Positions 1 through 64,000 of a stretch of 64,000 bases of DNA are shown here, piece by piece. Numbering within the stretch: position 1 is the first letter of the stretch; each line of letters opens with the position of its first letter. Source of the DNA: a virus; IMG/VR virus record IMGVR_UViG_3300002494_000025, positions 32,001 to 96,000 of that record. One strand, written 5' to 3'. The notes beneath the pieces were generated by a model, which made no database searches, was not told where the DNA came from, and saw only the letters and a list, made by a program, of their open reading frames with translations. The translations under genes and the position numbers were made by a program.

Positions 1-972
1 ATGAGTTCTGTATTGGATCGATTTTATCATAGTTACAACCTTATACACATTTTTGAACAAGGTTTGTCTGAACAAACTGTTTATGATCTTTATAAACAAC
101 TGTTAACATATAACATTAAATTAATATTCATCAATGAAGTTGGTTTAGACAATAGATTTTTGAAAATACTCAGGTTAATACCAGATTACAAACTTGTACC
201 AATATATTATCACTATCACTCAACAAGTAGTAATTTGTTTAAATCGGTGAATTTTCAAGACTTAATAAGACCATTTGTGGAAAATTTTAATGTTAAGTTT
301 ACAACACCGGTAATGGCAACATATCAACTATGTTTGGAGAATCAATTTTATGATTGTACGTATGTACCATTTCCAATAGATCCAGATAATGTTAACAAAC
401 AACTTGTACCAACACATGAAAGATTAATCGATTTTTATATTCAGAAATCAGTTCAACCACATACACTTAAGTTATTATTACAATATATCTGTGACAATGA
501 GAAAACATAGATAATACGATATTTAAAAGATATAAGGTCTGATAACACAAAACATATACTTGAAGAAGTTACTCAAATTGTTGAATAGTACAAAAATAGT
601 AACATTATTTACAAACCACATGATTCTTTGATTGATAACATTGACTATTATTATAGTATATCTAAATTTTATTACACACACCCACAATCAGAATTATCAT
701 CAATTGCAACGTTGGATTAGATGGTAAATGGTTGTGTCCCAATCATACACAATCTTAATACACATAACTATACCGATTATTCTGATTATAAAAAATATTC
801 ATTATATTAGATATATCAATCACCAGTTGAAACTGATGAACATTTTATTACAACTACTGTTCCTGAAAAACTTAATTAGTGTGATGATGATTTTAGAAAA
901 CAAATGAGGGATTTTGTAATCGATAACTATTATTATACAGTTTTGAAATTCTTTGAAACTATTTGTGTGTAA
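1..972 (+). CDS. GT-B (GT4-like) glycosyltransferase, TAG-recoded; 5' end may lie outside window
   Basis: Frame 1 stays open through 5 TAGs to TAA at 970-972. C-terminal SELSSIATLD*MVNGCVPII resembles the GT4 E-x7-EAMAxGxPVI motif with *=Ala. Confidence 0.55.
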
Positions 973-1038
973 TTGTTTGATTTAATCTTAATTTAAAAAT
1001 AACCACTTTAGTTGTAAGAATATGGTGGTGATACAACA

Positions 1039-1512
1039 ATGGGTTTCTCATGGCAACAATCTATAAGTAGAAATACTGTTATCACATAGTAGCAGATAAA
1101 TGAAATAGAAACAAATGTACAAACTTTATTAAATAGAGTTTGTTATATACATTATGTTAGTCAAAATACAAATGATTATTTAACAAACCAAGCAGTTCCA
1201 CACTATACAGGACATCAACAAACTCATTATGTAAATCATTACAACCCCAATCATACTGGGTTCCATTCAGGTTATGACAACTCAAATCAGACCTCACACT
1301 TGACATCATATGTTACGGGTGATAAAAGTACATACATGAGTACACATGTTATTACAAATAATACAACTCAAAATAGTACACATAATAGTGGAACATATAG
1401 TGGATATAATTCAACATATTATATAGGTGATGATAGTTCATATGATACAAGTAAACAATTAACACATAATTATACAGTTTATAATCAACATTTTATGAGT
1501 GTTATAAACTGA
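1039..1512 (+). CDS. His/Tyr/Asn/Ser-rich low-complexity protein, probable virion or tail accessory; TAG-recoded
   Basis: GGTGGTG RBS, ATG at 1039, MGFSWQQSISRNTVIT**QINE, ends TGA at 1510-1512. Roughly 4-residue periodic H/Y/N/S pattern. Confidence 0.65.
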
Positions 1513-1556
1513 CTGGTAACATTTATTAACCATCTACTAAAGTGGGTGAGAATTGT

Positions 1557-2393: not shown

Positions 2394-2423
2394 TACAATA
2401 TAAACTATAAAAATAATAAAAAC

Positions 2424-2450
2424 AGAGAGTGGTTAGTTCCACCCTCTTTT
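2424..2450. terminator. Probable bidirectional intrinsic terminator
   Basis: Imperfect stem-loop (agagagtgg..ccaccctct) flanked by A/T runs, between convergent genes. Confidence 0.55.
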
Positions 2451-2468
2451 CATATTTACATAACAAAT

Positions 2469-4196
2469 TTAATTTACAACAGACACTTCTATTGTAGAGA
2501 GATTGGTATCATAGTCTTTCTTAATTTGAACATTTACGTATTCAAATGGAATTTCCTGAATATTGTTGTTACTGATTATTACCTGATAGTCATATTGTTT
2601 TGCAAAGTCATAAAGTAATTGTAAAATTTTCAAAACATTTGAACCATCAACACCATTAAAGAAATCATCAAAAATTAATACTTTGAGTTCAGGTGCTGTT
2701 TTGAATATATTTAAGATTGTAAGAATTGTAAGAATAAAGATAATTGATACTTTCTTACGTTCACCATTTGATAATAGTTGATACGGTATGAACACACCAT
2801 CCCTGATAATACCGAACGAGATACTTTCATCATCGTATACAATTTCAAACTCTTCATTTTTATTCAACACATATGAACTATATGATTTAGCAATACTATT
2901 CATTTTACTGATATATTGTGATAAGAAATTTTTTCGTACTGGTGACTTGACATTTAGTAGTTCAATTATCAGATTTATATGTTTTAATTTTGTATCTAAT
3001 TCTTCAACAAGTTTGTTTTTCTCAGTGATTTGTTGTTCAATTTGTTTTATGTTTTCTTCGATTTGTTTAACTTGGTTATCATTTTGTTCGATTTGTTCAT
3101 TTATCATTTTCCATACATCTCTGGCACGGTTATGTAATTGTTTAAATTCTTGTATCTTGCTCAATTTCGTTTTCAACTCATTATACTGTTGTTCTATTTG
3201 TTTCCGTTGATTTGATGTTTTCAATAAGACTTCAATTTCGTCGTTTATTAATTGCGTATAAACATCAACATCACCTTTTGTGATTGGTCTATAACAAGTG
3301 GGACATTTTTGTAGTTCCTTTAAATGATTTAGTTCTTTTATCTTTTTTTCGTGAGTTTGTTCCGAAGTTTTCAATTCTAATAACTTTTTTTCCGTTTCAT
3401 TTATTTCATGTTTTATAGATGTTTCCATTGTTGTAACAAATTGTGTAATTTCATTACTTTTACCATTGAAATCTATCTCCAATTCAGGATTAAAGTACTT
3501 TTTTAATTCATTTAAATCGTTCATATACTTATTAAGTTCATTAACCTTTCTTTGGATTGTTTCAACTGAAAACTGTTGTTGAATATTTTTTAATAAACTC
3601 TCAAACTTATTTTTAGAAGATTTCAACGTTTCAATTTCAGACATTAATTTCGATTGTTGTGTCTGTAATGTTGATTGTTGATTTTTAATTTCCTTAATAT
3701 ACTCTTCCAAATCTTTATTATAAATGATTTTCTCAATAATTCTAAAAATTTGAACTGATGATAAGTCATATATTTGTTCTTTGTTCGGAATAAATACATG
3801 TGTAAGTGAATATATCTTATTAATATCTTTTATAATACTCTCTACAAAATAGTCAATTTTATCTTTTATTCTAATATTAAAAATATCTGGTTGAATTGTT
3901 ACATCAGATTTTCGACTATCAAATATTCTTGTTATAGTATACGTATGTGTATCATCTTTTTTAAATGTGACAGAAATCTTGGAATCACCTTCCGAACCAA
4001 TACGTTTCAAACTTTTAAACGATTTTATTATATTTAACGTTGACAATATACTATAGACAATTGAAGTTTTACCAGAACCGTTTGTAATGTTAGTATCATT
4101 ACTGTTTAATAACACGATGTTGTAATTATCAGGGATTTCAACACTAACATTATCATATACAGTAATATTCTCAAGTTCGATACGAGAAATTTTCAT
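2469..4196 (-). CDS. SbcC/Rad50/T4 gp46-like recombination ATPase
   Basis: Walker A NGSGKTS, coiled coil, CPTC zinc hook, LSNGE signature, IFDD Walker B. No internal TAG. Confidence 0.9.
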   Translation of the reverse strand: MKISRIELENITVYDNVSVEIPDNYNIVLLNSNDTNITNGSGKTSIVYSILSTLNIIKSFKSLKRIGSEGDSKISVTFKKDDTHTYTITRIFDSRKSDVTIQPDIFNIRIKDKIDYFVESIIKDINKIYSLTHVFIPNKEQIYDLSSVQIFRIIEKIIYNKDLEEYIKEIKNQQSTLQTQQSKLMSEIETLKSSKNKFESLLKNIQQQFSVETIQRKVNELNKYMNDLNELKKYFNPELEIDFNGKSNEITQFVTTMETSIKHEINETEKKLLELKTSEQTHEKKIKELNHLKELQKCPTCYRPITKGDVDVYTQLINDEIEVLLKTSNQRKQIEQQYNELKTKLSKIQEFKQLHNRARDVWKMINEQIEQNDNQVKQIEENIKQIEQQITEKNKLVEELDTKLKHINLIIELLNVKSPVRKNFLSQYISKMNSIAKSYSSYVLNKNEEFEIVYDDESISFGIIRDGVFIPYQLLSNGERKKVSIIFILTILTILNIFKTAPELKVLIFDDFFNGVDGSNVLKILQLLYDFAKQYDYQVIISNNNIQEIPFEYVNVQIKKDYDTNLSTIEVSVVN

Positions 4197-4239
4197 ATTT
4201 CAACCCCCTTTATACTTTATTTAACAAATACTATCCAAT

Positions 4240-4260
4240 AATAATATGTTGAAATTTACA
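4240..4260 (-). promoter_or_regulatory. Conserved motif TGYAAA-N5-AHATATTATT (candidate early/middle promoter); representative of about 12 copies
   Basis: Other copies at 9006, 15274, 17983, 25767, 28320, 30087, 47796, 48433 (minus) and 30903, 32320, 32901 (plus), each just upstream of a gene in the same orientation. Confidence 0.75.
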
Positions 4261-4292
4261 GTTTATTTTAAAATTTAAATGAGGTGACATAA

Positions 4293-4928: not shown

Positions 4929-4945
4929 CTATAGAGGTGACATGA

Positions 4946-5623: not shown

Positions 5624-5655
5624 TAAATTGTCAATCTCAATGGGGGTGAATTTAA

Positions 5656-12515: not shown

Positions 12516-12519
12516 AAGT

Positions 12520-14050: not shown

Positions 14051-15229
14051 TCACCCCTGTTGATTGGATAATGAATTTAAATTTACAACATATGTATTGA
14101 ACAAATTGATCAACAACTCTTCATCATATGTAATTCCTTTGTTCCTTAAACTTTGGATATATTCCATAAGATATTCAACAAAATACTCTTCAAAAGTAAG
14201 ATACTTTTCTTCTACAATTTCAGTTTCTTGTTGTAATTTATTATCTTTTAATAAATTACTTAATGTTATTAACTTTTTTACATGAGAATTATTACTTAGT
14301 TTATTGATTACAACATCATCAATATTTGAATTATCTGTTAGATGTAGTTTAACAACGTATAGATGATGGTTATCATTTAAAAATGGTTCATACTTATCAT
14401 ACTCATTACTCATAAACTCTAAATACTTAACTTGGTGTGGCCACTCATTAAATGTTAATTGATATGTGTTAAGATCAAATTCATAATATCCGTATATATT
14501 ATTATGTACCGTTGTTTTTTCACTAAAACTCTTTGGGAAACATGTAATAACATAATAATTATCATCTGGAATTCGAATATCCTTAGTGTGATAATGTCCT
14601 TGAAAGAACTTGTAATTGAGGTTACTCGTTTGTAGGAACATTCTCAACTCGTTGTAATTGAGATAATGTGGATTGTTAGTTACATCAACATTTTCAAATT
14701 GTGTAATAATTTCTGAAATTTCAGCATGTGATATAAACAAATGTAATGACCGATTGTGATATGTATTTGTGGTTATAACATTTTTTATTTTCTCAATTAC
14801 GATATCAGTCAGTGTATTATCAACAATATCTTTGAAGAACTCTTTGGGGTAATATGGAATAAAATGGATATACAGGTCTGGAGAAAATTGAATTGTGGAA
14901 ACTTCCTTCACAGTAATCGTACGTTTATACGTACTTAACAGATTAGTTACATTGACAATTTGATTCATTATATCGTGATTTCCGTTGATTAAGTATACTT
15001 TCTTAAACAAACTAACTATTTTACCGTACAATAGCATATCAAAGTACGTAATTTTACTAATATTATCGAACAAATCACCCCCAATTAATAAAACATCTTC
15101 ATTAGGGGTTAGTTGTAAATTTAAAAAACTTTTCAATAATTGAATACTTCTTTCTGACATACTTTTTTTATTACTAAACAATGTGTTACTCTGTGTGATA
15201 TGTAAATCCGATACTATGTACAATTTCAA
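14051..15229 (-). CDS. SbcD/Mre11/T4 gp47-like metallophosphoesterase nuclease
   Basis: SDLH, GGDLFD, GNHD and GHYH motifs. TAG-free with one Ala in 392 aa. Confidence 0.9.
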   Translation of the reverse strand: MKLYIVSDLHITQSNTLFSNKKSMSERSIQLLKSFLNLQLTPNEDVLLIGGDLFDNISKITYFDMLLYGKIVSLFKKVYLINGNHDIMNQIVNVTNLLSTYKRTITVKEVSTIQFSPDLYIHFIPYYPKEFFKDIVDNTLTDIVIEKIKNVITTNTYHNRSLHLFISHAEISEIITQFENVDVTNNPHYLNYNELRMFLQTSNLNYKFFQGHYHTKDIRIPDDNYYVITCFPKSFSEKTTVHNNIYGYYEFDLNTYQLTFNEWPHQVKYLEFMSNEYDKYEPFLNDNHHLYVVKLHLTDNSNIDDVVINKLSNNSHVKKLITLSNLLKDNKLQQETEIVEEKYLTFEEYFVEYLMEYIQSLRNKGITYDEELLINLFNTYVVNLNSLSNQQG

Positions 15230-15299: not shown

Positions 15300-17948
15300 T
15301 TAAATTATTCCCCCGAATAATGTGTACAGTTGTTGAACATTGTTATTGGTTGTTACAGTACTCAGTATATCGTTAATAATTTTTTCAGACATAAAACTTT
15401 CAAATCGTCTAACAAACTGTTCATAGATTGAAAGATAATCGACTTTTATTGTTTTGTCATTAGTTAGAATTTCTTTTACAATCTTGGTATCATTTTCCTT
15501 AAATGAAAGGTAACCACTTATTTCAGTAACCTTTTTTCGTTTCTCATTAAAAATTTCTCTTGCCACATTAAAATATTTTGATGTATTAAGTATTTTTACA
15601 GGAATTACATAAATTTTTTGACCAATAAGTTCGTTATCGTCATAATCAATATCCATAACATCTTCCGCGATATACTTGAATAACTTCCAACCACGTAGAT
15701 GATATGGATCAACTTTATACTCCAGCGTTGTAAGTGTTTTCGACTCTGCAATTTCTTCAAGATGTGTAGTTTCAAGTTCGTTATAAATTTGTACAAATAA
15801 ATCCTTCATGTCTTTTTCAGATATATTATCATTGGTTACAAGTAACATAAACAATTGACGTAGTTTATTTTTCAAAAATTGTGGAAAATCAGACCTTGCC
15901 AAGTCAACACCTTTATATATTTCCTTCCCATGGTAATCAAACCCGTAGTAACGTTTTTTCACACCAAAGAATTTTACACGTTTAAACACTTTATCAATTT
16001 CCATTCTCAGTGTATTGATTTGTCTTAGTTCTTCATCACTTATATTCTGTATAATTTCCTTCAAAAAATCTGGTATTTTGTTATTTACATGTTCCCTTAT
16101 ACGTTCAGCACATACTAATGTAACTTCTTCGTTATCCATTATTACCGGATTTATAAATATAAACTCGATAAATACACTGTCTGTATCACCGTATACTACT
16201 TTAGTTAAAAATGTATACTTAAACCCATTTATATCTTCTCTCCAAGTTTTATCATCAACATAGTCAATAACACTTCTTATCAAATACCTTCCTACAGATG
16301 TAATTGATAGTGCAACATCTGTATTGTAAAATGTAAAATATTTTGTTCCGAACACCCCATAAATACTATTTGCCAAAATTTTATAGTTTAGTTGTCTATT
16401 ATAGTATTCCATATTATCGGGGTGTTCTTTACTTAGTTTCTTATAGTAGAATCTCATTTCTAATATATTTCTTATCATCTTTCGTATAAGTGTATCTTTT
16501 TGTAAGAAGTATACGTCACGAACACCTGTTAATTCTTTGTTGATATGTGTATATTTCACAGGTTCTGTGGGTTTCTTTACTGGTTGGATATCTATACTGC
16601 ATGTCAGTATTATATTTGGGTATAGTGATGCAAAGTCTAAGACTACGACGTTTTTATGTACTCCATCATCCGGGGTATGTACATATGCACCGGTGTAACT
16701 TTCATCGTTGTTTTCCTCGGGATCTATATTCTTTACACCAGACGTAAAAGGCAACAACACATTTTCCTTCCATGCAAATAGATTCAAATAACCTTCGACT
16801 GTGTATAAGGTACTCATGAGTTTATCAAGATTTATTGGAACAATTTCGTTAAATGAATTCAACAGTGTAATTAATTTTAATTTTTCTTCGAGTTTGACCA
16901 GTATCTCAACATCACGTATTATGTAACTTAAAAAACGTTTGTAATCATCAATATGTAGATATCCCATCTTTTCTGTTTTTCCAAATTCTAATCCATTGAT
17001 TTTTGCAATATTATCCAGACCCCAACTTGTTGGTGTCTCTGGTATAAATTTTTCGTATAATTCTTTATAATCAATGAAATAAATCATTGGTACATTTATG
17101 TAATATACAACACCACGTCCACCTTGTGCAAATTCCTTAAAGTATGGTTTACTTATCTTATACTCATTGGAATCAAAGGATAAAAAATCATTGAATAATC
17201 CATGTTGAATCAGTCGTTTGACCAAGTATGGAATATCATACATGTTAGAAAACCATCCTGTAATTATGGATGGTTTTTGTATTTTCACATAAATTAAAAA
17301 TTTATCCAACAAGTCCACTTCATCTTTTGCAATGGTGATTTTAGTCTTTATGTTGTACTGTTGGTGGTATTCTCTTTCATATTCAATTACATCCTTAGGA
17401 TTATTAACTTTAATAAATTCAGTGTTAATGATAGTATAATACGTATTGTCGGTATTGTTATACCAGGTGATAGAAGTAATTGGCATCATCGCTTGTTGAG
17501 GTTTGTTCCATCCGTGTTTAAGTGCTTCCGGTGTAGAATACACTTCTATGTCCAACATCCAATATGTTCTATCGAATTGAATATCCTCAACAGTAAACAA
17601 TCCTACATCTTTAATAAAATTTCCCACAATAAGTTTTCGCTTTTTCAACCCTGCTAAATATCTCACAAATTCATTCTTAAATTCTCTAAATGCATAATAA
17701 TCATGTTTGTCATCTTTTAGAAAGACTTCATAAATTGATTCACCATTCAACCCAGTAAAGTTTGTCTTTTTTACACCGATATTAATGTTTTTCTCCTTCA
17801 AAAATGATTTCAAATACTGTAAACCTTCCTCTACCAAATAGAAGGAAGGTTTCATTTTAAGAATATTTAGTTTATCTTCCGTCGTGTGTATCAAAAATTG
17901 ATATTTATCTTTATCATAATACAAATTCTTAATTTTCATATAAACCAT
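15300..17948 (-). CDS. polB: Family B DNA polymerase with proofreading exonuclease (gp43-like)
   Basis: DIEV ExoI, YDIPY, DFASLYP, KILANSIYG, YGDTDS and KKRY motifs. Confidence 0.95.
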   Translation of the reverse strand: MVYMKIKNLYYDKDKYQFLIHTTEDKLNILKMKPSFYLVEEGLQYLKSFLKEKNINIGVKKTNFTGLNGESIYEVFLKDDKHDYYAFREFKNEFVRYLAGLKKRKLIVGNFIKDVGLFTVEDIQFDRTYWMLDIEVYSTPEALKHGWNKPQQAMMPITSITWYNNTDNTYYTIINTEFIKVNNPKDVIEYEREYHQQYNIKTKITIAKDEVDLLDKFLIYVKIQKPSIITGWFSNMYDIPYLVKRLIQHGLFNDFLSFDSNEYKISKPYFKEFAQGGRGVVYYINVPMIYFIDYKELYEKFIPETPTSWGLDNIAKINGLEFGKTEKMGYLHIDDYKRFLSYIIRDVEILVKLEEKLKLITLLNSFNEIVPINLDKLMSTLYTVEGYLNLFAWKENVLLPFTSGVKNIDPEENNDESYTGAYVHTPDDGVHKNVVVLDFASLYPNIILTCSIDIQPVKKPTEPVKYTHINKELTGVRDVYFLQKDTLIRKMIRNILEMRFYYKKLSKEHPDNMEYYNRQLNYKILANSIYGVFGTKYFTFYNTDVALSITSVGRYLIRSVIDYVDDKTWREDINGFKYTFLTKVVYGDTDSVFIEFIFINPVIMDNEEVTLVCAERIREHVNNKIPDFLKEIIQNISDEELRQINTLRMEIDKVFKRVKFFGVKKRYYGFDYHGKEIYKGVDLARSDFPQFLKNKLRQLFMLLVTNDNISEKDMKDLFVQIYNELETTHLEEIAESKTLTTLEYKVDPYHLRGWKLFKYIAEDVMDIDYDDNELIGQKIYVIPVKILNTSKYFNVAREIFNEKRKKVTEISGYLSFKENDTKIVKEILTNDKTIKVDYLSIYEQFVRRFESFMSEKIINDILSTVTTNNNVQQLYTLFGGII

Positions 17949-20568: not shown

Positions 20569-21672
20569 AATGATAATATTATACTCAATACAATAATTGA
20601 ACTACAATCAAATGATACCAACAATGATTATATTTTGTATACAAATGATGTGTAGTTAATCTTAAAATAGAAAATGTTCAATGTTGAAACATATACAAAT
20701 ATTAAATTTATTGACATTGAAAATTTTCATACCCACCAGTTCAGAATTGTTAAGATAACAAACGACGATTTTGAACGTTTAATACCTGTCATAGAACGCA
20801 ATCGCTTCGAATCAAATGACATAATTATCAATCGTACTGAGTATAACGTTGATCATAATTCAATTGATTCATATTTCTACATTACAAATGAAGAACAAGA
20901 TGTAAAATACTTATTCAGAAAATTAGATGGTAATACATAGAGGTTTGTATCTATAGAGAAACTATTACATGCATATCTAAGTGAATATCAATACGAAAAC
21001 TATGGATTAAAGATAATTAAACCACGTGACGATGAACAGTTATAGCTACTTGATAGTTTCTTTACAGATACACTAATAATATCATTATAGAAGTCTGGTA
21101 CTGGAAAGACATTGTTATAGTTGTTTTATTAGATAACAGAAGTACTTAAAAATAGACTAAATAAAACGTTAATACCAAAAACATATTCAAAAATTATCTT
21201 TATCGCCAATAATTCAGTTATCCAACCCCGTAAAGAGTTGGGTTTCCTACCAGGTAGTAAACATGAGAAAATATTACCATTTATGAGTGGTATCATCGAT
21301 AATTTAGATTTTCTCTTTAATGGAAATATTAATAATGACTTTGATATAACAAAAACAGATGTGAATAGTCTATTTGAAATCCGACCAATTTAGTACATCA
21401 GAGGTTCATCAATAAATAATTAGATCGTAATTGTTGATGAAGTTCAAAATCTAACATGGCACGAATTAAAAACAATAGTGACACGTGTGAATACATCAAC
21501 ATCAAAATTAATTCTCATTGGTGATATACATCAAGTCGATGAAACAATGTAGATAGATTATCTTGGTATTATGAAATTGATCAATGTATTGTTTGATTCA
21601 AACCTACAAAATTGGAATTATATACCACTTACCACAAGTTATAGAAATATGTTCACAAACACACAAACATAA
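20569..21672 (+). CDS. phoH: PhoH-family ATPase with partial PIN domain (PhoH2-like); TAG-recoded; start uncertain
   Basis: [32 protein letters not shown] and GDIHQVD. Upstream TNDV*LILK*K resembles a PIN-domain tail. No clear start or RBS for the PIN part. Confidence 0.8.
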
Positions 21673-24238: not shown

Positions 24239-24553
24239 TTAATTATTCTGTACCTCAAGTTTAATTGTTACCCAACCGAACATTTTTTTGATGTTATTAT
24301 ACTCAGGATGTGGTTCAAATCGTAATACAGGTTTAACTGGTTTTATTGTGTAGATTTCATTTAATGGAATTATTTTCCACTCATTACTATCTTGTACACG
24401 AACCAACAACACTGTATTTTTATTTTTTATTAAATTTGTTCCAACTAGATATGGTTCACAGACAATATCGTTTATTTGTATACATTCTTTATTTACTATG
24501 TTATTTTCCAATTGTTTGATTAACTCCCTTTGTGTATATACACTCATACTCAC
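24239..24553 (-). CDS. Stand-alone WYL-like domain protein (degenerate)
   Basis: CEPYLVG..EWKIIPLNEI..F.P.PEYN resembles the 27937-28293 protein. Confidence 0.5.
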   Translation of the reverse strand: MSMSVYTQRELIKQLENNIVNKECIQINDIVCEPYLVGTNLIKNKNTVLLVRVQDSNEWKIIPLNEIYTIKPVKPVLRFEPHPEYNNIKKMFGWVTIKLEVQNN

Positions 24554-24571
24554 ACCATCTCCTCATATAGT

Positions 24572-25741
24572 TTAATTCAATACTTTTAGTAATTCACGTG
24601 CAAGAAAACGGATAACTGGGACTGAAACTGAATTACCTGCTTGTTTGTACAGTTTACTTGTGGGATATGGTTGATTTCTATAAGTGGTGGGTAGTTTATA
24701 ACCATTATCAACAGGGAAACCTTGGATCTTAAACGCTTCTTTTGGTGTTATCATCCGGATTCCGTCTGGAACTCGTACAATAGTCATGTTAGTTGGATGT
24801 GTAGATGATGCGACTAATGCAGGACACAGTCCAGATTTATTTTTTCGTACATAGGAATTCCTTCTAATTTGGTAGAACCAATACATTTCATCAACTTCCT
24901 CTTCAAGATTGATTCTATTCTTTGGTCTTTTATCTGGTGGTAATTTCTCATACTCTTCCTTTGATACAAACAGATATGGATACTTTTCTTTTGTATAATA
25001 ATATTCAGGGTTATCTTTGATATTGATGTTAAGATCTAGTACATTCATACGTTCTTCCATTAATTGTTGAGGTGTTTTCCTGATTTTATATTTTTTAAGA
25101 TTGTTACCATCAAACAATGTAAATTTATCAACATCTTCTTTATTCAGAAATGCAAGAATATAGATTCTTGATCTGTTTTGTGGTAGTTCTGTATAATCTT
25201 TTGTGTTTATAACAGCATCTTTGACGGTATATCCCAAATCTTCAAGTGTAGTTCTAATAACTTTGTATGTATTTCCCCCATCATGTCGTTTTAAATGACT
25301 AACATTTTCCAGGAATAAAACACGTGGTTTTTTACCGAACACCTTTTCATGTTCAATTACAACATCCACGATTCTCCAGAACATTTCCCCCCTTGGGTCT
25401 TCAAATCCAAGTTTCTTACCTGCCACTGAGAAAGGTTGACATGGAAATCCAGCAGTTAGGATGTCAACATGATGAGAAAACATATCGTTCTTCAACTTCT
25501 TGTAATAACGAATTAGTTTAATGTTTTTTGCTAATTCCGGTTTAAGTATTTTTACAATATCACCATGTAGAATTCTGTGGTTGAAATTAGTTTGTAACGT
25601 TACAACTGCATAATTATCTATTTCATTTGACCAAATGATCTCGTATTTTTTATTTTCAACATCCTGGGTGGCAAGTATGAACCCCATTTCTATTCCACCC
25701 ACACCTGCAAACAGACTACCAACATAAAATAACTTCTCCAT
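24572..25741 (-). CDS. DNA (cytosine-5) methyltransferase, orphan
   Basis: LFAGVGG, GFPCQPFS, ENV, QNRSRIY and YKQAGNSV motifs. Confidence 0.95.
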   Translation of the reverse strand: MEKLFYVGSLFAGVGGIEMGFILATQDVENKKYEIIWSNEIDNYAVVTLQTNFNHRILHGDIVKILKPELAKNIKLIRYYKKLKNDMFSHHVDILTAGFPCQPFSVAGKKLGFEDPRGEMFWRIVDVVIEHEKVFGKKPRVLFLENVSHLKRHDGGNTYKVIRTTLEDLGYTVKDAVINTKDYTELPQNRSRIYILAFLNKEDVDKFTLFDGNNLKKYKIRKTPQQLMEERMNVLDLNINIKDNPEYYYTKEKYPYLFVSKEEYEKLPPDKRPKNRINLEEEVDEMYWFYQIRRNSYVRKNKSGLCPALVASSTHPTNMTIVRVPDGIRMITPKEAFKIQGFPVDNGYKLPTTYRNQPYPTSKLYKQAGNSVSVPVIRFLARELLKVLN

Positions 25742-25839: not shown

Positions 25840-27108
25840 TTATATCCGCATCGGTATTAACACATAAAAGTATGTAAGCTCACTATCAACTGGTGATATT
25901 TTGACTGGACTGACATTATCGACAAACTTAAACATACATTTACTTGTGTCTATATGTTTTATGATTTCGCTTAACAGTTTGGGGTTAAAACTAATAATCA
26001 AGTCACTTCCCTGTTTATCCACAATATCGAGTTCATCAATAACTTCACCAAAATCGGAACTTCTTACTATAAATCTTGTAATGTTATTAGTAATTTCCAG
26101 TACAAGTTTTTCCCCACTTTTGTTTGACAAGACTGATATATGTTTCAATGTCTCTTTCAATTTCTCTGTGTCGAACACTATCATAGTACTTGTGTTAATG
26201 TTAACAACTCGTGAATAGTCTGGAAATTTATCTTCAACAGTCCTGGTGATAATTTTTATATCGCCGGTATCAAACATCACAACTGAGGTATTGTATGATG
26301 TAGACACATTTATTTCTGGTTCTGTGGTTGTAGTTACTAATTTGTATATCTCTTTCATCGTTTTAAGATCTACAAGGAATTGAATAGACTGATTAATTGA
26401 TGTTTGAATTCTATCCGATGTTAGTCCTAGTCTATAACCATCAGTACCCACCAAAGTTAACTCATTATCTTTATTGACTAACCACAATACTGAATTCAAA
26501 TTCCTTAAATTGTAATCTGTGGATGTACAAAACAGTACCTTATCAATTAGTTCTTTTAATATGGATGTTTCTACTGTAAAAACATTATCAGTTTCACTTA
26601 CAAGAGTCTCAATATCTGGGAACTTATTCTCTTCAGAGTATGTTGTAAGTGTATATTTGGATTTTCCACTCTTGATAATTAGTTTACCATCATCTGTATG
26701 ATACATAAATGTAAGAACGTCATCTTTATCAAAACTTTTAACAATATCAAACAATAGATCTGATCTTACAAGAAACTTAGTTTCGTTACCACTACCACCA
26801 CTACCACTGAACTCGTATTCACTAACATTGATACTTGTTACAATTGTAGTTTGAAGATTTGTTGATACTAACTTAACCACTGGTTCCTTATCCATAAAAC
26901 CATTTTCAACTTTGAACAATATACATTGAAGTGTTGGATCAACTGTTCTAGAATTGGTAATATCATCAAGTATTTCAATTTTGTTGATAATATGATATTG
27001 TTTTACATTAAATGACACCACATTCTTTTTCAACATACTTTCTTCATTTAACCTCCTCTCAAAATTTTGTATGTTATTAACAATATACACAAGTTGTACA
27101 TTTACCAT
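25840..27108 (-). CDS. dnaN: Bacterial-type DNA polymerase III beta sliding clamp (start may be ATG at 27036)
   Basis: GTDGYRL, FPDYSRV, ISFNPK and C-terminal LIPMRI. No alanine at all. Confidence 0.9.
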   Translation of the reverse strand: MVNVQLVYIVNNIQNFERRLNEESMLKKNVVSFNVKQYHIINKIEILDDITNSRTVDPTLQCILFKVENGFMDKEPVVKLVSTNLQTTIVTSINVSEYEFSGSGGSGNETKFLVRSDLLFDIVKSFDKDDVLTFMYHTDDGKLIIKSGKSKYTLTTYSEENKFPDIETLVSETDNVFTVETSILKELIDKVLFCTSTDYNLRNLNSVLWLVNKDNELTLVGTDGYRLGLTSDRIQTSINQSIQFLVDLKTMKEIYKLVTTTTEPEINVSTSYNTSVVMFDTGDIKIITRTVEDKFPDYSRVVNINTSTMIVFDTEKLKETLKHISVLSNKSGEKLVLEITNNITRFIVRSSDFGEVIDELDIVDKQGSDLIISFNPKLLSEIIKHIDTSKCMFKFVDNVSPVKISPVDSELTYFYVLIPMRI

Positions 27109-33993: not shown

Positions 33994-35187
33994 GTGGTGA
34001 TGATGGCAAGAAAAAAGAGTGAAGTTGAATTGAAAACCCATGAAAACTCTGGAATTTTAAAAATTTTTGAGGAAATAGCCAAAGAAACAAATGTGTCAGA
34101 GACTAATCTTATGGATGATATATTTGATACACCATTGACTGTGTTTAATGAACTCATTGGTGGTATTCCAAAGGGTAGGATTGTTAGTATTGCTTCCGAA
34201 CCAGGTGCAGGTAAAACTACACTACTAGTACAAACCATTTCACATCTACAAAAACACGAAACGTGTAATATTATCTACATAGACACAGAACAAAGTATGA
34301 GTAGGAGAAGATTCACAGAACTTGGACTCGATATTGATAAAATATTGTATGTTCAACCACAAACGTTGGAGGATACTTACACATTCATAATCAAAGTATT
34401 ACAACGAAAACAAGAACTTAATGACATGACACCTTTACTAATAGCATTTGACAGTGTCACTGCAACACCAACGAAAAAAGATATTCAACAATCCGACGAA
34501 ACTGATTTTCAACAACAAGTCGGGTACAGAGCAAGAATCAATTCTAAAGTAATACCGATCATACAAACGTATATATCAAAAACAAACACCACATTTTTGA
34601 TGATTAATCAACTGAGAAAAAATATTAATGTCGGATACAGTAGTTTCTTCACCCCACAAGATGAAATTGTTGGGGGATTGTCATTATTGTATTATTCTGC
34701 AATTGATCTTCGATTGTCGTCATCACTGTCAAATAAGAACAAACTACTAGAATCAAATGAAATAGATGGTAAACTTGTGTGGGCAAAGACAAAAAAGAAT
34801 CGTCTGATGACACCCATGATTGAATTTCCATTATTGTTGGATTACAAAAACGGATTTGACAATGATTTATCAAACCTTGCGTTTTTACTTGAGTTTGATG
34901 AGTACAGTAAAGATTATCTACAGACGGGGAGTTGGTATAGGATAAAAAATATCCTCACTGGTAAGGAGTATTCATTTAGGTTATCAGAGTATAAACAAAT
35001 GTGCACTGACAACCCTGAGTTTAGACAGACCGTTGATGATTTGGTGGTATACATATGTAGAAAAGAATTCAAGGGGTTGAAAGACGAGGTGATTGTTGAT
35101 GAACTTACCAACAGAAAACTTAAAGACACAAGAACAAGAATCAATAACGTAGTTGAAGAGGTTAGAACAGCAAATAATGAAAGTTGA
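33994..35187 (+). CDS. RecA/UvsX-like recombinase
   Basis: GGIPKGRIV, EPGAGKTT, YIDTE, FDSV, INQLR and KKNR motifs. Confidence 0.9.
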   Translation: MVMMARKKSEVELKTHENSGILKIFEEIAKETNVSETNLMDDIFDTPLTVFNELIGGIPKGRIVSIASEPGAGKTTLLVQTISHLQKHETCNIIYIDTEQSMSRRRFTELGLDIDKILYVQPQTLEDTYTFIIKVLQRKQELNDMTPLLIAFDSVTATPTKKDIQQSDETDFQQQVGYRARINSKVIPIIQTYISKTNTTFLMINQLRKNINVGYSSFFTPQDEIVGGLSLLYYSAIDLRLSSSLSNKNKLLESNEIDGKLVWAKTKKNRLMTPMIEFPLLLDYKNGFDNDLSNLAFLLEFDEYSKDYLQTGSWYRIKNILTGKEYSFRLSEYKQMCTDNPEFRQTVDDLVVYICRKEFKGLKDEVIVDELTNRKLKDTRTRINNVVEEVRTANNES

Positions 35188-48465: not shown

Positions 48466-50577
48466 TCACAAGATATCAATATTATCATCGGTGAATTCTT
48501 CATCTAAAAACACACCATACTATACTTGTATTATGTAAATTGATTGGTTTGTTTGTTCATATTGTTGTATGTATTTTTCGGATTTTTTAACTTTCTATAA
48601 TATCTCTTTTAGTTCGAATTGTATACGTTCTTTTATCTATGACACATCAAATTTATATGTTTTGATACGTGTTGTAACATCGATAACATCGGGTATTTGT
48701 TTAACATTTTCAAGTTGATGTGACTAAGTATCGTACATATCTTTCAAAAATGAACGGATGATTGATAAATCAAATTTATAATCCTTATATTGTTCCGAAA
48801 GTTTTTTAACTAAATTGATTCTATTATCTTTTGTGAATTTAATATCTATTGGTAGTTCTAATTGTTTTAACATTTCAATTCTTTCTTCACTAAATTCTTT
48901 TAATAGGTCTTTTACAATATTGTGCATGTTTTTGTTAATCAATGAAAATTTATCACGGTCGACAAGTTTTACCAATTCATCTGAATTTCCTGTTAGTTTT
49001 CTTAGCACAACACCCTCGATTTCTTGTTGTTTTTCATCTGTGATGATATCGTTGACATACTATATTAAAATATCTTTGATATTCAACATATAGTTACTTC
49101 TAACATAGTTCTATAACATCTCCCGGAGTTCTTTTATTTGTTGTCTATATTCTTTTGGAACTCTGTTTAATTTTATTGTTATCTATTCAAAAACTGTTAA
49201 ATCCTTAAATTGGGTAGGAACTGATATATCAGGTATCTCACTTAGTTTTTTGTTCAAGAATTGTTTCAATTCATTGAGGTGTTTTTCAATTTCAGTTTTA
49301 ACTTTAGAGAGGTATTTGTTAATATCGAAATACTCCACAGTATCAACAGACCAAGTTTCAGAGATTTGTTTCTATACAATATCATCATTTTCAAGATCTG
49401 GTACATACTATGTTACGTTCACTGTTATTGGTTCAGTTGATTTAAGTTCTTCATACAGTGATAATAAATCCTTATCAAGTTCATTAATATCGATGTTACT
49501 ATCTGTAAATCGTGGGAGTGGTCTTAAATAGATTGTTTTTGATGTTGAACTATTGTATTTTATTGTGTTTGTGTATAACGTTGATACCAATTCACACTCC
49601 CATTCGATTTGTTTACCATAATATTTGTTAAGATATTTGTCAAAAATATTTTTATATTTTTGATACAATGTAGTAACAAACTATGTCTAACTTCTAATGG
49701 CGTTATACTGTGGGATTTTAGGTATTTCTTTCCAGTTATACCATGGTATCTATTTACCTCCGAACGATTTACGACGGATTGTATATATTTGTCCATTTGT
49801 ATCGATACCGAAGGAAAGGTTCTAAACACCATCGATTTTGATTGATGTTAATAATGGTTCAGTTTCATACAGTATCTATTCAATATAGTCAATGAATTCA
49901 TTTACTGGGATATCTTCAATATGTGAAATTTCAGTTAATAACTATTCTGACACATTCTATTTAGATACATTTCTTTTTGGTTTTGGTGTGAATATATCAT
50001 CACCATATTCTTGTTTTAGGAAGTTAACATACTCTACAATGAGATCAAACAATTGAAGGACTGGTGTTGCAAGTAATTGTTTCTATGTTTCATAATCACC
50101 ATTAAAGAGTGCATTTCTCAGTTTTGTCTAAGAGATTTCATCGTCTGATTCAACATTTCTTGGAAGTTCTTCAACTTTAATTTTGTCACTAAGATTTACA
50201 CGTTTTAATTGTCCTTCATATGTTTGTTTTCTATCAGTTCCACAGTAAACCTTTACGATTTCAATGTCATCATATTTATTCTTTATGTATTCGCTAATAT
50301 TTGGTATATATCCAACATTGAATACTTCAACGATCTAACTTTTATTGTATTTATGTTTTAAATCGTTTATGATAGCTTTAATAAATAGTGTTCTAAGTTC
50401 CTAGTCAAATGGATTTTTGTAGACATCTTGACTTGTTTTACTACCCTATATTATCTATACAATGACAACATCTATATCATTATCTCGGAATGCAACTTCC
50501 AGTAATTTTTGATGCTATTTTGTAACACCTTGGAATCTACCAAGTATTAGTCCACCTCTAAATATTTTTTTATCCAT
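48466..50577 (-). CDS. Fusion of an HxGH-type (cytidylyl/NMN adenylyl) nucleotidyltransferase-like domain and a ligase-like KxDG domain; TAG-recoded
   Basis: N-terminal GRFQGVTK*H, NPF, CGTDR and IS*TKLRNAL, then SHIED, KIDG and EIEGVVLR. One frame to TGA at 48466. Confidence 0.65.
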
Positions 50578-50614: not shown

Positions 50615-52237
50615 TCAAATTTTCAAAATCCAATCATAGTCATTATTGGTTATGTTTTCAGTCTCATTATTTACTTCTTGTTGTTTGTTTTTATTAATGA
50701 TTTTTTTACTCTCTTTTAAGTTTATTCTGAGTATTGTGTTTTCAATATGTTCAAATGTCTATTTTAAATTAATCCGATTTTGTTCAATCAACTGATTTCT
50801 CTAATAATATGCAAATGACAACTACATTACAAGGTCGTCATTATATCCATGTTTTGCTTGTGGTTTACCACCACGGTATACAAAGACTAGTAACTCACTT
50901 ATAATTCTTTCACTTCTGATATTTTCTGGAAATTCAGTAACGTATTCCTTCATCTATTTCAATATTAATGGTCGGGTAATTGCAGTAGTAATGATACCGT
51001 ATGTACGAGTTTGGGATCGTTTTTCGAGATCTTGTGTGTTGATTTTCTATTCTTCTTTTGTACTGGAGATGTATTTGTCGATGAACAAATTTGAATAACC
51101 TTTTTCACGTAGACGTCTTGCAACCTATAATCCCCATCCACCGGTAACTTCTATCTATATCGACTATGTGTTGTAATATTTACCAATCTCTATTAATACA
51201 TCCTAATATTCAACATCTGATATATGTTTACTTGTAAAATCCTATACAACTTTACCATCTTCGTCAATTACAACGAACTAAGACTAGTCATTTGACATTC
51301 CAGAAGCAACGTCTACGCCTATGATATACTATTTATTTTCCTTCACTTCTTCATACATATAAACTTCCCAACCGTTAATTTCAAATGAACTTATTGGTTT
51401 TTGTTGTGACTTTTGTAATTTTTCTAGTGTTACAGAATCCAAGTATGTGTCATTAGATGAAATGAAATGTAACTCTAATTCTTGCATTATTGCAAGATGG
51501 TCATTACCAAGTATTTCACATTGTTGTTTGTACCATGTATCGTCATAATACGGAATATCTCTCCAGTGGAATCTGAACAATGTATATGGTGGGTTATCTG
51601 AATTTATCTACTATTCATAATATCTATAGTAATCATTATCCACACCATTGGGTGTTGAATTGAGGATAATACCCCATGGAATACCAGAATTCTATATCGT
51701 AGCAAGTGTTGGTGCTAACTATTTTAACTATTCTTCAAGATTTGGGACAAACTACTACTCATCTACAATAACAGTTGACAATCTAAAAGAACGAAACGGG
51801 TTATTCGTATTACCCTATCGGATTACACTACCGTTAGAAAAATGGAGAGACTTTTTAAGAGGTCTCTCCAACTTAGGTAACCATGAAATTTTTGATAATT
51901 CGGAAATCTCATACATTTCTTTTATGTCTTGTAAGAATTGGTTTGCTTTATCTTGTTCAATTGATAAGATACCGATATAGTATCTACTATAAAACAACTA
52001 CAACCACAGTGATAATGCTTGTAATGTAGTGGACATACCTGTTTGTCGTGATTTTAACACCAACATCTTATGTTTTTCCAACCATAGTCGAATAAATTCT
52101 TTTTGTTTTTCAAACATTTTAAATGGTACAACACCCATTCTTTGATTAAAAATTTTTATATAATTTTCAATAAAATAAATGGGGTCTGTTTTACATTTTA
52201 AATATTCTTGTATGTTATCGAGTTTTGTATTTTCCAT
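50615..52237 (-). CDS. terL: Terminase large subunit (T4 gp17-like); about 22 in-frame TAGs
   Basis: KSRQTGMST, IVDE**F, STPNG, GVDVASG and DDLVM*L. Single frame to TGA at 50615. Confidence 0.92.
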
Positions 52238-58345: not shown

Positions 58346-58356
58346 GGTGATACATA

Positions 58357-59919: not shown

Positions 59920-60047
59920 TTAAGATGACCAATTGGAGAACAAAGTGTATGTAAAACTATATATATGACTTAACCGGGGATTTTACTTTTCAAACTTAAA
60001 AATGAATTACATCAAAATTAATAAAGTAAAATTGAGGTGATAATAAT

Positions 60048-63000
60048 ATGAAATTAAACAAAACATTGAGATTAAAAACTATTAATTTTATGATGGGTTT
60101 GTTAAAGAAAGACATTAACGAAGTTGATAATATAATTCGTATTGAACTTCAATCAGATGTATACAATCAAATATTATCGGAATTAAGGGCAGGTAAAGTC
60201 ATTAGAATTTTAATAGATCACGAACTGATGAACATTGTAAAGTTTCATCAACAAATTTACCATAATGGAACTACAAATAATTATGTTGCAGAATTTTTTG
60301 TTATACGTGGTGTTGAAAATACACAACCGGTACCACACAAATCATCGAATAATACAGTAGTTAGACAAGTCTTAACATCCGAACTGTTTGAAACATAGTA
60401 CAATAGTACAGAGTTGGACAAAGTTTTATACAATGAATTAGAGTCTTTAAACTAGTTTGTGTAGGATATATCCGGTTCTGGATTTATTAATAATATGTTA
60501 ACAAGCAATGTTCAGATAAATTAGAATGAATATCAAGGTAATTTACTTGTTGTGGATTTTGATGTATTAGAGGAGTATGCCAATACCGGATATAATCCCG
60601 GTTCTATAAATACAAGTGTTAATTCAGTTTTATTTTACCCACGTACAAATCCTTCTGAAAATGATAAACTGTCTCTAAATTCACTTGTCTTATACAAAGA
60701 TACAAATAATATAGTTCATTATTATTACATAACAAATATTATAAAAGATAGTAACAATAAAATCGTTTGTCAACTTTAGGAAATCCCATCAAATAGTGGT
60801 GTACTTCAAAATATTTCCTTTGTATATTCAAAATATCACAAAAGTTTGTTCATGACAAAGGATGGTACACCAACACGGTTATAGTTTGTCAAAGACATAA
60901 TTGACGGTATAAATCGTAATACATAGTAGAATTTGAGTAGAACTCAAGATACCTACTATACTACAAATTAGGAACTGTATAATGTTATCAATAGTAATGG
61001 ACAAAATACAGCACCAGGAAAATATTTCGGATTTTTTAACAATATTGATAGATTGTTAACAGTAACTTACTATCCCAACTCAACCCTTTCATATTCAACA
61101 AACACCTTGAATCCGTATCCTAATAAAATTGTCTCGGATTCCCGTGTACTGTTCGATCTTACAAGAAACAATCTTTATATACACAATAAGGACATTATTG
61201 TTGATTAGGCGAACAATGTTTCATTCTATGGTAATATATCTTTTAAAACTGGGTTAACAATCGATGGTAAATCAGACAACCTGTTCCGGGTATCGTATTC
61301 TACAAATAACAAAACATATATAAATTTTGAAAATAATCCTAATGATGGTGAATAGGACTTAACAATTTCTACTGTCAATAATTTTGATATTCAAACACGT
61401 TATTTTCGAATATCTGACAGAAATACAACACCAAATCAGATTGTAAGTATTGATACTAATACATAGACTGATAGAAAGTTATCAATTTCAAATCTCAATA
61501 GTTTATCAATGAACAGTAACAATATTAGTATCATGTCACCAACGAAAACACAATTAACCGTTGGTGATAAATTAACATTTGAAGCTTTAAAATCAACCAA
61601 TAACCTTGTAGATGTAAATGTCGATTACATCAATACACTCACATTTAAGAATGTATATACGATTAGTATCAGAAATGACGTAACCACAGAAAGTATAAAT
61701 GTTTCATTGTCAAATTAGTTGAATAAAACAATAACACTATCAAACCTTAATAACTTCAGTGTTCTTACAAGTGTAAATAATGTGACTGTAAATCCATATA
61801 ATAACATCCAGTTAACAGCACCAAATATTTCAATTAATAATGTTAATACATTCAATTTGTCATAGAAAATCAATACCAGTGAAAGAACAGTCCTTACGAT
61901 TAAAAATACTGGTATTGATTTGAACGTTAGTGTTATTCTAACCAATGTAAATGTCCTTGATACAGATACAAGTCTTGTAAATATCAATACAAAATCAGTT
62001 ACTATCAAAGATGGAACAAACGAATATATTAAACTTCAAACTGGTACTACAAATACATTAACAATTAACAATTTGTCAAATACAAGTATTATTAGTAATA
62101 TATTTAGTCTAAAAACAGGAACAGTTCTATCACCAACTGAAAAAATAAGTGTCAATACTGATACTATTCTACTTAACAATAGTACACTATTGATAAATGG
62201 TAGTACACTTCAATTCAATACATAGTCAGTACTTACAATTAAAAATGGAACCACCGGGAATAATGTAATCGGAATAAAGGTCAATGGAACAGATAATTAC
62301 CTGGAGACAACTACTAAAAATGTTCGTATATATACAACAAATAATACTAAGATAAATTTAAATGTCTCCGGTATTGAAAAAGAAATTCTCTCAATTGTCA
62401 ACAATAACAACACCTCTGAATTTAATGTAACTGCTAATAAAATATATCTTGAAGGTAGTATAAATACTTCTGTAAATACTAACAAATTTACAATATCTAC
62501 AAACACTACCGAATATCTCAATATTACAAATACCGGAACAGCATAGACACTTACAATATCCAATCTTAGTACAATTGATGTTAATACACAATTGTCTCAA
62601 ACATATAAAATCAATAATAACGAACGTTTGAAAATTGATGATTCCTCAATTACTACAAATGTTACAAATCTATCAATCAAATATAATACAACAACATTTG
62701 TTGATATTAACACGAATACAAATAGTATTAATACTACAGTTAAAAATATTTACACTAAAGTCTCCGATGTCTATAAACTGGGTGTTATATACGATGGAAT
62801 AAATACTACCAATGTCGTATCTGCAACAAATTCAGCATCATCTGTATTACTTACACTTAATGCAAATAATATTACAACAGTCAGTAATACAACAAATATC
62901 AATTTTCATAACATATTTAACATAGGTCTTCCAACAAAAACATATTTAATATTGAAAAATGATGATACACTTAGTGTAAATAATCTGTCAACCACAACAT

Positions 63001-64000
63001 TTGATACATCTACTTCACACCTATTTAAAATTAATGGCGGTAATAGATTATTAATTAATACCACCAATGTTGATATAACAGTTTCAAATCTCAAATAGTC
63101 TGTAACAGATTTCAATGTTGGTAGTGGTACTACATATTTAAATCTCAACACTACCAACAACTTAGTGAATGTTACAACAAAAGACTTTAATGTAACAACA
63201 AGTAATATCACATCAAATGTTGATAATTCATTTATATAGAATGTAAAAAATCAATTCACCGTTAGTGTTAGTGTTAATAATGGTATATCACAAACAATTA
63301 AAAACGTGTTAAGTATTTCTAATTCAAGTAATACATCTAAAGTTTTACTAACTGTAGACAATATTGATACCGATGTCACATCATCACTTATTGTACGTAA
63401 GGGTTCGTATAACTATGTAATAGTAGATACACCCAATAACACACTTACAACACAAGCAAATAATGTGTACGTCAACTCTAATACATTCTATGTAACTACT
63501 TATATTAATAATGGCATACAACAAATAACCACTACTGTTGTAAATATTACAAATACAAATAATAAATAGTCCTTGTATATCACAACTAATAACTTTAATG
63601 TTATATCTGATAATCTAAATACAACAATCAGTAATGTAATAACTAAAGTATCTAATACTTGGACATTGATGAAAAATACGACAGAATATATCAATGTCAA
63701 TTTATTAACTGATACAACAACGTCATTAACAGTCAACAACTTTAACACAATTTCTCTAACATCAAATAACCACTCAATCAAAACAGGTAGTGTTGAACGA
63801 GTTAAAGTAGATAACACCAATGTAACTATCAACACAAATACATTATCAATTATTAATAACGGTAATACATTTGTTACTACAAATATTACACTCGATAAAG
63901 GCACCTATACCTTTGATAGACTCAGTAATTTCATAGTCAAGAAAGTTGGTACAACAAACAATGAACTGTTCAAATTGAGTGAAACAATATTGAGTGTATC
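60048..64000 (+). CDS. Very long Thr/Asn/Ile/Val/Ser-rich beta-repeat protein (tail fibre-like), runs off the window; TAG-recoded
   Basis: GAGGTG RBS. Six ORF-track pieces in one frame, each ending at TAG. More than 1300 codons. Confidence 0.7.

Follow-up and report, generated by a model that had tools for sequence, protein, structure and literature searches.

Reassignment of stop codons in phages is known from crAss-like, Lak and related phages, for which reading of TAG as glutamine (code 15) and of TGA as tryptophan has been described (PMC11210395, PMC10607447, PMC9523058, PMC10879173). GpC-specific C5-cytosine DNA methyltransferases of phages, coupled to TET enzymes, are documented as well (PMC8256090, Burke et al. 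2021). Here, we describe a stretch of 64,000 nt of DNA (one strand, record positions 32001-96000 of the IMG/VR record IMGVR_UViG_3300002494_000025, called the window in the following), which belongs to a T4-like phage that avoids the dinucleotide GpC and, on good support, reads TAG as alanine. An earlier model-made reading of the same letters, here called the original prediction, had proposed that a pressure against GpC made alanine costly and that TAG was taken over as an alanine codon. This interpretation is supported by our data, because neither of the two outcomes it had named as contrary was obtained and the evidence from related phages agrees with it. We assign a probability of about 0.6 to the reading that the whole clade is under selection against GpC and that stop codons were captured for alanine as compensation.

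Evidence for the decoding of TAG as alanine

Open reading frames (ORFs) of at least 200 aa cover a fraction of 0.32 of the sequence if the standard code is applied, 0.79 if TAG is treated as a sense codon, and 0.37 if TGA is treated as one. The gene for the large terminase subunit (TerL), which contains many in-frame TAG codons, was aligned with 111 standard-code homologs (alignment rows P0010-P0120, representing 111 of 120 matches; the nine recoded relatives P0001-P0009 were excluded). Alanine is the commonest residue at nine of the 22 TAG columns and is enriched 5.7-fold over these columns, and glutamine appears there at 0.23-fold. The match to glutamine that code 15 would predict is not found at the TAG columns of TerL. 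Six TAG positions of the PhoH-like ATPase could be aligned with the structure PDB 3b85, and four of them stand opposite alanine, one opposite glycine and one opposite histidine.

The decoding apparatus is encoded outside the window, where the genes for tRNA-Ala(UGC), tRNA(CUA) and transfer-messenger RNA (tmRNA) lie in a row at record positions 118483-119172 (Rfam scores of 73, 67 and 204 bits, respectively). The tRNA(CUA) gene (record 118731-118806) adjoins that of tRNA-Ala(UGC), and its cloverleaf carries a G3:U70 pair together with A73. This pair, in the presence of A73, is the feature read by alanyl-tRNA synthetase, irrespective of the anticodon. The alignment columns and the tRNA identity elements together make alanine a well-supported assignment for TAG, in agreement with the original prediction. 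All three RNA genes of this phage retain many GpC. The tmRNA gene (record 118813-119172; L018:2813-3172) follows directly after the suppressor tRNA and has a predicted tag of ANEYIPLAA.

The nine excluded TerL sequences are public entries that were translated with TAG as glutamine. They contain 7.4-10.5% glutamine and 0-1.8% alanine, and the 111 homologs contain 4.5-9.0% alanine (mean 6.6%) and a mean of 4.8% glutamine. We therefore regard the nine entries as probably mistranslated.

GpC depletion and its effect on alanine content

At a G+C content of 28.7%, the window contains 312 GpC, as compared to approximately 1,315 predicted from its base composition, which corresponds to an odds ratio of 0.24. 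In 200 mononucleotide shuffles of the window, we obtained 1,314±28 GpC with a minimum of 1,226, which places the observed count at z = −36. All 32 two-kb bins are affected (odds ratios of 0.10-0.56), and the spot counts made by eye for the original prediction were nearly exact: we counted 17 GpC at positions 60001-64000 (75.7 expected), where about 16 had been noted, and 5 GpC next to 11 CpG at positions 2461-3180, where about 4 and 11 had been noted. CpG, at 0.77, and GG/CC, at 1.05-1.16 (GG: 1.16), show no such deficit. GT and AC are over-represented (1.25-1.26), as are TG and CA (1.27-1.31).

The full record of 135,374 bp is classified in IMG/VR as a provirus with a completeness of 76%. Its GpC-depleted, low-GC phage region extends from approximately 24.6 kb to 130.7 kb and thus comprises about 106 kb. 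In a profile of 5-kb steps, the odds ratio is 0.11-0.42 within this region and 1.19-1.44 in the left 24 kb of the record, which have a G+C content of 41-44%. This left flank is used solely as a reference with normal GpC inside the same record. Gene models are our own greedy ORF calls with TAG as a sense codon, and the ORF spanning the left junction was left out.

For the 66 genes lying wholly within the window, GpC is found at codon positions 1-2 in 194 of 667 expected cases (0.29), at positions 2-3 in 27 of 215 (0.13) and at the junction 3-1 in 49 of 288 (0.17). Over the 96 phage genes in the full record, the values are 381/1,211 (0.31), 55/365 (0.15) and 88/485 (0.18), and the intergenic DNA of the phage holds 41 of 203 (0.20). 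The corresponding odds ratios for genes of the flank are 1.07 (1-2), 1.36 (2-3) and 1.60 (3-1). Synonymous codons tell the same, with 20 GGC vs. 632 GGT, 23 AGC vs. 681 AGT, 6 TGC vs. 118 TGT and 6 CGC vs. 176 CGT, as compared to 209 GTC vs. 903 GTT. Outside of alanine positions, TAG-free and TAG-containing genes are depleted alike. The depletion of GpC is therefore real, far beyond chance and independent of codon position; it is not limited to alanine codons and is weakest in them. The scarcity of AGC, TGC, GGC, CGC and G|C junctions, from which the original prediction had argued for a bias at the level of DNA, is borne out by the synonymous counts and by the values at 2-3, 3-1 and in intergenic DNA. 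An odds ratio near 1 or a depletion confined to codon positions 1-2, which had been named in advance as contrary outcomes, was not found. Among control genomes, GpC reaches 1.05 in a standard-code T4-like Flavobacterium phage, 1.24 in the TAG→Gln phage Phass-1, and 0.95 and 0.97 in outgroup contigs.

The avoided unit is GpC itself, because every sequence context is affected and GC-containing words show no depletion in excess of that of the dinucleotide. Each of the 16 NGCN words is under-represented, with ratios of 0.11-0.63. The highest value is that of TGCA (0.63 overall), which results from the alanine frame, where T|GCA reaches 0.87; elsewhere (the two remaining frames and intergenic DNA), TGCA stands at 0.09, 0.23 and 0.27, and VGCB at 0.18, 0.15 and 0.17. 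A context-specific target such as GCB, VGCB or RGCY was therefore rejected, since the sparing of TGCA is limited to the alanine frame. The preference for GCA over GCT (4.7:1) is comparable to the ratios of CCA to CCT (5.0) and ACA to ACT (2.8). The under-represented 4- to 6-mers, whose listing had been suggested together with the original prediction, were determined with a maximum-order Markov correction. GC-containing words then range from 0.65 to 2.0 without any outlier, and no 5- or 6-mer stands out. The only tetramers that are strongly under-represented in the phage region after this correction are GATC (0.45), CTAG (0.48) and CATG (0.72), which looks like ordinary restriction-site avoidance over and above the GpC effect. 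Words of the type GC-N-GC occur eight times at spacing 3, with about three expected, but not more often than at other multiples of three. Sense-strand trinucleotides are about symmetric, with GCT at 0.16 vs. AGC at 0.19 and GCG at 0.16 vs. CGC at 0.13.

The loss of GpC is accompanied by a low content of alanine. GCN accounts for 1.23% and TAG for 1.24% of the phage codons, and the flank contains 7.2% alanine. The 38 TAG-free genes contain 1.4% alanine, and the 58 TAG-containing genes 1.2% GCN plus 1.8% TAG. Because the TAG-free genes are also poor in alanine, GCN appears to be costly in its own right, apart from the recoding. TAG is absent from replication genes and frequent in structural genes (Table 1). 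The major capsid gene differs from the other structural genes by the absence of TAG, and it contains 1 of 9 expected NGC codons. As this is a late gene, the distribution of TAG does not simply separate early from late genes. The most abundant protein is thus independent of suppression, and GCN seems to be retained where much alanine has to be incorporated efficiently.

Table 1. Features of the GpC-depleted phage with their codon use; positions refer to the window unless marked otherwise.
Feature	Position	Strand	TAG and GCN codons	Basis
GpC-depleted DNA of T4-like phage	1..64000	.	TAG = sense	odds ratio, ORF coverage
Mre11-like phosphoesterase	14051..15229	-	TAG-free, 1 GCN/392 codons	PF00149, E 3.5e-10
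Family B DNA polymerase	15300..17948	-	TAG-free, 17 GCN/882 codons	PF00136, E 5.5e-44
PhoH-like ATPase	20635..21672	+	10 in-frame TAG	PHROG 170, E 3.5e-43
C5-cytosine DNA methyltransferase	24572..25741	-	TAG-free, 13 GCN	PF00145, E 1.3e-67
DnaN sliding clamp	25840..27108	-	no TAG, 0 GCN/422 codons	three DNA_pol3_beta Pfam domains
RecA/UvsX-like recombinase	33994..35187	+	TAG-free, 11 GCN/397 codons	PF00154, E 6.9e-29
Large terminase subunit (TerL)	50615..52237	-	22 in-frame TAG	PHROG 2, E 2e-39
Major capsid protein	record 110866-112305 (L017:14866-16305)		no TAG, 26 GCN	Pfam Gp23

Related loci, methyltransferase gene and structure of the record

One scan of JGI metagenome contigs yielded 12 TerL-related loci, all of which are depleted of GpC, with odds ratios of 0.00-0.27 in ten and 0.46-0.47 in two of them, one of the latter containing a restriction-modification gene with normal GpC. 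Four loci (L002, L003, L005 and L013) have TAG in frame. The TerL genes of the others (L004 and L006-L012) contain both TAA and TAG in frame and no GCN, leaving TGA as the sole stop codon; one example carries 46 TAA and 8 TAG but no GCN among 494 codons. At the loci tested, TAA and TAG both fall on alanine columns of the standard-code homologs. In this comparison, which used the first 60 of the 111 homologs and columns with at least 30 residues, alanine is the top residue at 13-14 of 25-40 TAA columns, with an enrichment of 4.5-6.9-fold. Five loci (L007-L009, L011 and L012) each contain one gene for tRNA(CUA) and two to three for tRNA(UUA), and the eight such genes of L007 (2669-4112) and L008 (5245-7412) have one acceptor stem in common, with G3:U70 and A73. 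The tRNA(UUA) genes are entirely free of GpC. In their D-stem, both bases of the usual G:C pair are exchanged to give A:T, so that pairing is kept.

By codon position, GpC in the relatives' loci amounts to 0.03-0.10 (1-2), 0.05-0.36 (2-3) and 0.07-0.23 (3-1), based on crude TGA-only ORFs, some of which overlap tRNA genes; L009, which contains a gene with normal GpC, reaches 0.44-0.45. The relatives with in-frame TAA and TAG are almost devoid of GCN throughout their loci, with 2 GCN left in 3,234 codons of L006. Stop codons supply 50% of the alanine codons in the phage of the window, and this share rises to approximately 90% in L003 and 99% in L006. The outgroup locus L001, at 31% GC, has a GpC odds ratio of 0.95 and 278 GCN in 6,651 codons. 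Further members of the clade were not found in IMG/VR by TerL alignment, capsid protein, polymerase or tRNA pattern, and a scan of genome contigs for relatives gave one distant match.

Two genes of the relatives deserve mention. A class-I release factor of 355 aa is encoded at L012:63-1130 (+) and L006:6587-7654 (+), with a match to Pfam RF-1 (E ~1e-29) and a GGQ motif. Its N-terminal half is very divergent, and its gene is free of in-frame TAA and TAG and holds a single GCN. The protein carries SPT at the place where RF2 has SPF, and it may be a terminator for UGA only. No release-factor gene was found in the record containing the window. The other is the gene with normal GpC in L009 (139-3636, +), which codes for a fusion protein of 1,165 aa of the Eco57I/MmeI restriction-modification type. 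Its alanine content is normal (47 GCN), and neither TAA nor TAG occurs in frame. The relative is otherwise GpC-free, and the gene was either acquired recently or represents foreign DNA in the contig.

The C5-cytosine DNA methyltransferase encoded in the window is a candidate link to the biology of GpC. It matches M.HhaI over the catalytic domain only (E 6e-33), with the target-recognition region unaligned. The stretches FAGVGG, PCQ, ENV, QNRSR and GNS are readable in its sequence, which we take to be the conserved catalytic motifs of C5-methyltransferases. There are 119 full-length homologs with 46-54% identity, and every name that bears an organism belongs to the Bacillota (Clostridium, Bacillaceae), the others being generic; one further homolog with 89% identity is located on a short contig. 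These homologs hint at a member of the Bacillota as a possible host. The enzyme retains 7 of 11 conserved alanines, which together with the approximately 50% identical Bacillota homologs looks like a fairly recent acquisition; the enzyme is therefore unlikely to be the cause of a depletion extending over the whole clade. The adjoining genes have no Pfam match, and PADLOC and Atlas likewise gave no partner nuclease among them. A TET dioxygenase (PF12851) had no match in the record, and this search was also blank for the control genomes.

The window lies within a record that may be composite. The left flank (record 1-24,400) is a phage module in the standard code that brings a separate set of terminase, portal, head and tail genes along with an ORF of 2,447 aa. 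The assumption that the flanks are host DNA was therefore rejected. The right end (130,700-135,374) contains genes of an anaerobic ribonucleotide reductase. Three copies of a tail-fibre segment, each approximately 460 bp long and with 77-85% identity, are present, two at the left junction (record 24420-24880 and 25081-25548) and one, inverted, at the right junction (129518-129979). Because two phage modules are present and the tail-fibre segment occurs at both junctions, the record may represent a chimeric assembly, tandem elements or an exchange of receptor-binding modules. The flank copy of the segment contains 10 GpC not shared by the phage copy, which has GT or AC at six of these sites; amelioration of the segment was dropped as a test of mutation vs. 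selection, because 10 GpC are too few to discriminate.

A pair of paralogous ORFs, each approximately 160 aa in length, lies next to the tmRNA gene (record 119266-119757 and 119990-120460; L018:3266-4460). They have near-normal GpC (0.9), 7-9 GCN each and no family match, and may be recent arrivals. In the window, a protein of 703 aa (48466-50577, -) is encoded with 23 TAG codons. Its N-terminus has a cytidyltransferase-like domain (PHROG 395, E 2.5e-12), and its extended C-terminal region is without assigned function.

Possible causes and comparison with known systems

The reading we prefer would run as follows. The nucleic acid of this clade of T4-like phages would be under strong selection against GpC, regardless of the flanking bases. 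Because all four alanine codons start with GC, such a pressure would strip GCN codons, and hence alanine, from the proteins. As compensation, stop codons would be captured for alanine by phage tRNAs that combine the identity elements of alanyl-tRNA synthetase (G3:U70, A73) with stop anticodons. In the phage of the window, the CUA anticodon would turn TAG into an alanine codon, and in the relatives, UUA and CUA anticodons would do so for TAA and TAG, accompanied by a phage release factor. GCN would be retained where alanine is indispensable or suppression too costly, as in the capsid, the polymerase and the methylase. In this sequence of events, GpC avoidance would have come first and then driven the reassignment, and the cost would probably grow with each additional GpC and fall mainly on DNA. 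A nicking, cutting, deaminating or binding activity directed at GpC, belonging either to the host or to the phage, could be the agent. Chances seem evenly balanced that such a GpC-directed activity, whether a host defence or a weapon of the phage against the host, led to the abandonment of GCN and to alanine decoding rebuilt on TAG or on TAA plus TAG, which would then represent the first natural stop→alanine code and the first reassignment driven by a dinucleotide.

One alternative is a mutational decay, in which a C5-methyltransferase of phage or host methylates GpC and deamination converts it to GT or AC, so that GCN erodes while stop-encoded alanine is immune. The intact-looking methyltransferase of the phage would suit this explanation, as would the documented existence of phage enzymes targeting GpC (PMC8256090). 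The excess of GT and AC is also in line with it, but an equal excess of TG and CA deprives this observation of its specificity, and the apparently recent acquisition of the methylase leaves the depletion in the rest of the clade unaccounted for. The odds ratios of 0.00-0.06 in relatives also go beyond what methylation has brought about for CpG in vertebrates. The turnover of GpC was compared among L006-L012 (91-97.5% identity; strain pairs with more than 99.5% identity were skipped), and the flux between codons in 5 of 21 strain pairs, using third codon positions in same-strand blocks of at least 500 bp. Changes between NGT and NGC were found at 7 of 447 sites (0.016) vs. 137 of 1,844 (0.074) for NAT and NAC and 0.042 for NTT and NTC, and those between A|C and G|C at 7 of 611 (0.011) vs. 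0.047-0.076 in other contexts. Per precursor site, the flux at third positions that changes GpC is thus 3-7 times lower than for identical transitions in the majority of contexts. Since neutral gain combined with hypermutable loss should give equal flux, the lower value favours selection against new GpC. With the reservations on this test given below, pure methylation-driven decay is weakly disfavoured, and we regard it as unlikely.

Avoidance could also act on RNA, if transcripts including tRNAs had to escape an endoribonuclease cutting at GC, such as a host toxin or a host-shutoff RNase of the phage, to which the phage's messages would have to be immune. As GpC is self-complementary, targets in DNA and RNA are indistinguishable at the level of the dinucleotide, phage intergenic DNA is generally known to be mostly transcribed, and the tRNA(UUA) genes of the relatives are indeed free of GpC. 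We consider this quite improbable all the same, because the sense-strand contexts are about symmetric, the tRNA-Ala, tRNA(CUA) and tmRNA genes of this phage keep many GpC, and no RNase candidate was found. It is very improbable that the two traits are unrelated, with stop→alanine decoding serving to gate late genes in the way proposed for TAG→Gln phages, alanine being used because its synthetase ignores the anticodon, and GpC depletion being a coincidence. The established indifference of the synthetase to the anticodon and the occurrence of TAG in structural but not in replication genes agree with such gating, but it does not predict that TAG-free genes lost alanine as well, and it is at odds with a late capsid gene without TAG, with a loss of GCN that tracks the share of stop-encoded alanine across the clade, and with the normal GpC of the TAG→Gln phage. 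Next to no credence is given to a disabling of GCN by a shortage of tRNA-Ala, for instance through an anticodon nuclease, or by plain AT pressure. The phage does carry its own tRNA-Ala(UGC) and its genome is AT-rich, but codon positions 2-3, 3-1 and intergenic DNA are more strongly depleted than alanine codons, which removes the supply explanation. As for AT pressure, the odds ratio is already corrected for composition, CpG and GG/CC are not depleted alike, and the outgroup contig of 31% GC has kept normal GpC and its GCN codons.

Several observations weigh against selection on GpC as the cause, or against a simple form of it. Only 47% of the residual GpC are kept between strains, as compared to 78% of CpG and 86-95% of other dinucleotides, and of the 81 alternatives standing in place of GpC, 73 are GT or AC, as deamination of 5-methylcytosine also predicts; fast turnover with these products is expected from mutational loss and from selective removal alike. 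The flux test suffers from a confounder, as changes between NCT and NCC are equally rare (5/360 = 0.014) although CC is not depleted, and it counts events shared between strain pairs more than once. The neighbouring phage module of this record shows no GpC avoidance despite having the tail-fibre segment in common, which speaks against a pressure on every phage of that community. No candidate for a nuclease or deaminase was found among the genes scanned in the record, which is 76% complete. Moreover, 568 GpC per strand remain, enough for the genome to be destroyed by an enzyme cutting each of them, so that the cost would have to be dose-dependent or the remaining sites protected. The original prediction had suggested host restriction as one source of the pressure. 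The depletion of GpC itself stands, in every class of sites, but restriction at GpC-containing sites fits poorly with so many GpC left and no depleted word, and classical avoidance of specific restriction sites does not fit. Finally, all evidence comes from a single clade and thus from one or two evolutionary events, which leaves the causal order unproven and the precedence of avoidance over reassignment inferred.

Neither a natural stop→alanine code nor a case of GpC depletion in phages turned up in the literature searched, and two papers on recoding contain no mention of alanine. The clade described here would add alanine, and in the relatives TAA, to the natural stop reassignments of phages. 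The evolution of genetic codes would gain a testable driver besides lysis timing, namely a penalty at the nucleic acid level on a dinucleotide that starts all codons of one amino acid. Selection against GpC would also imply a biochemical activity that reads a step of two base pairs, which is relevant to phage-defence biology and as a tool. For annotation, the public TerL entries of the clade with glutamine at TAG expose an error, and the TAA-recoded relatives will come out entirely fragmented from gene callers.

Known systems share single traits with this case. The theory of Osawa and Jukes describes codon capture under directional mutation pressure, and here, too, a pressure linked to composition empties part of the code table and reassignment follows. 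In contrast to that theory, the emptied GCN codons are not themselves reassigned; instead, stop codons are captured to restore the depleted amino acid. Vertebrate genomes have lost CpG via deamination of 5-methylcytosine, and RNA viruses of vertebrates are under selection against CpG. The vertebrate case resembles the present one in the depletion of a self-complementary dinucleotide to about 0.2, a modest excess of the transition products and a fast turnover of residual sites, but the present one concerns GpC and a bacterial host, reaches 0.00-0.06 in relatives and comes with a rewritten genetic code. Restriction-site avoidance in phages likewise makes words scarce at the DNA level, and GATC, CTAG and CATG behave classically in this phage. 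The GpC effect differs from it in concerning a dinucleotide in all 16 contexts, rather than a word of 4-6 bp, and in leaving hundreds of GpC in place. Hypermodification clusters of GpC-specific C5-methyltransferases and TET enzymes (PMC8256090) also single out GpC, and this phage has a C5-methyltransferase; here, however, GpC is removed rather than decorated, and the methylase resembles ordinary enzymes of the Bacillota. Compared to the recoded phages with TAG→Gln or TGA→Trp, we find the same placement of TAG in structural rather than replication genes, a phage-encoded suppressor tRNA(CUA), a host presumed to use the standard code and, in the relatives, a release-factor gene. Unlike in the TAG→Gln phages, the amino acid is alanine instead of glutamine, the relatives also reassign TAA and are left with TGA as the stop codon, and the GCN box is nearly lost in a genome that avoids GpC throughout, whereas the TAG→Gln control phage has a GpC odds ratio of 1.24.

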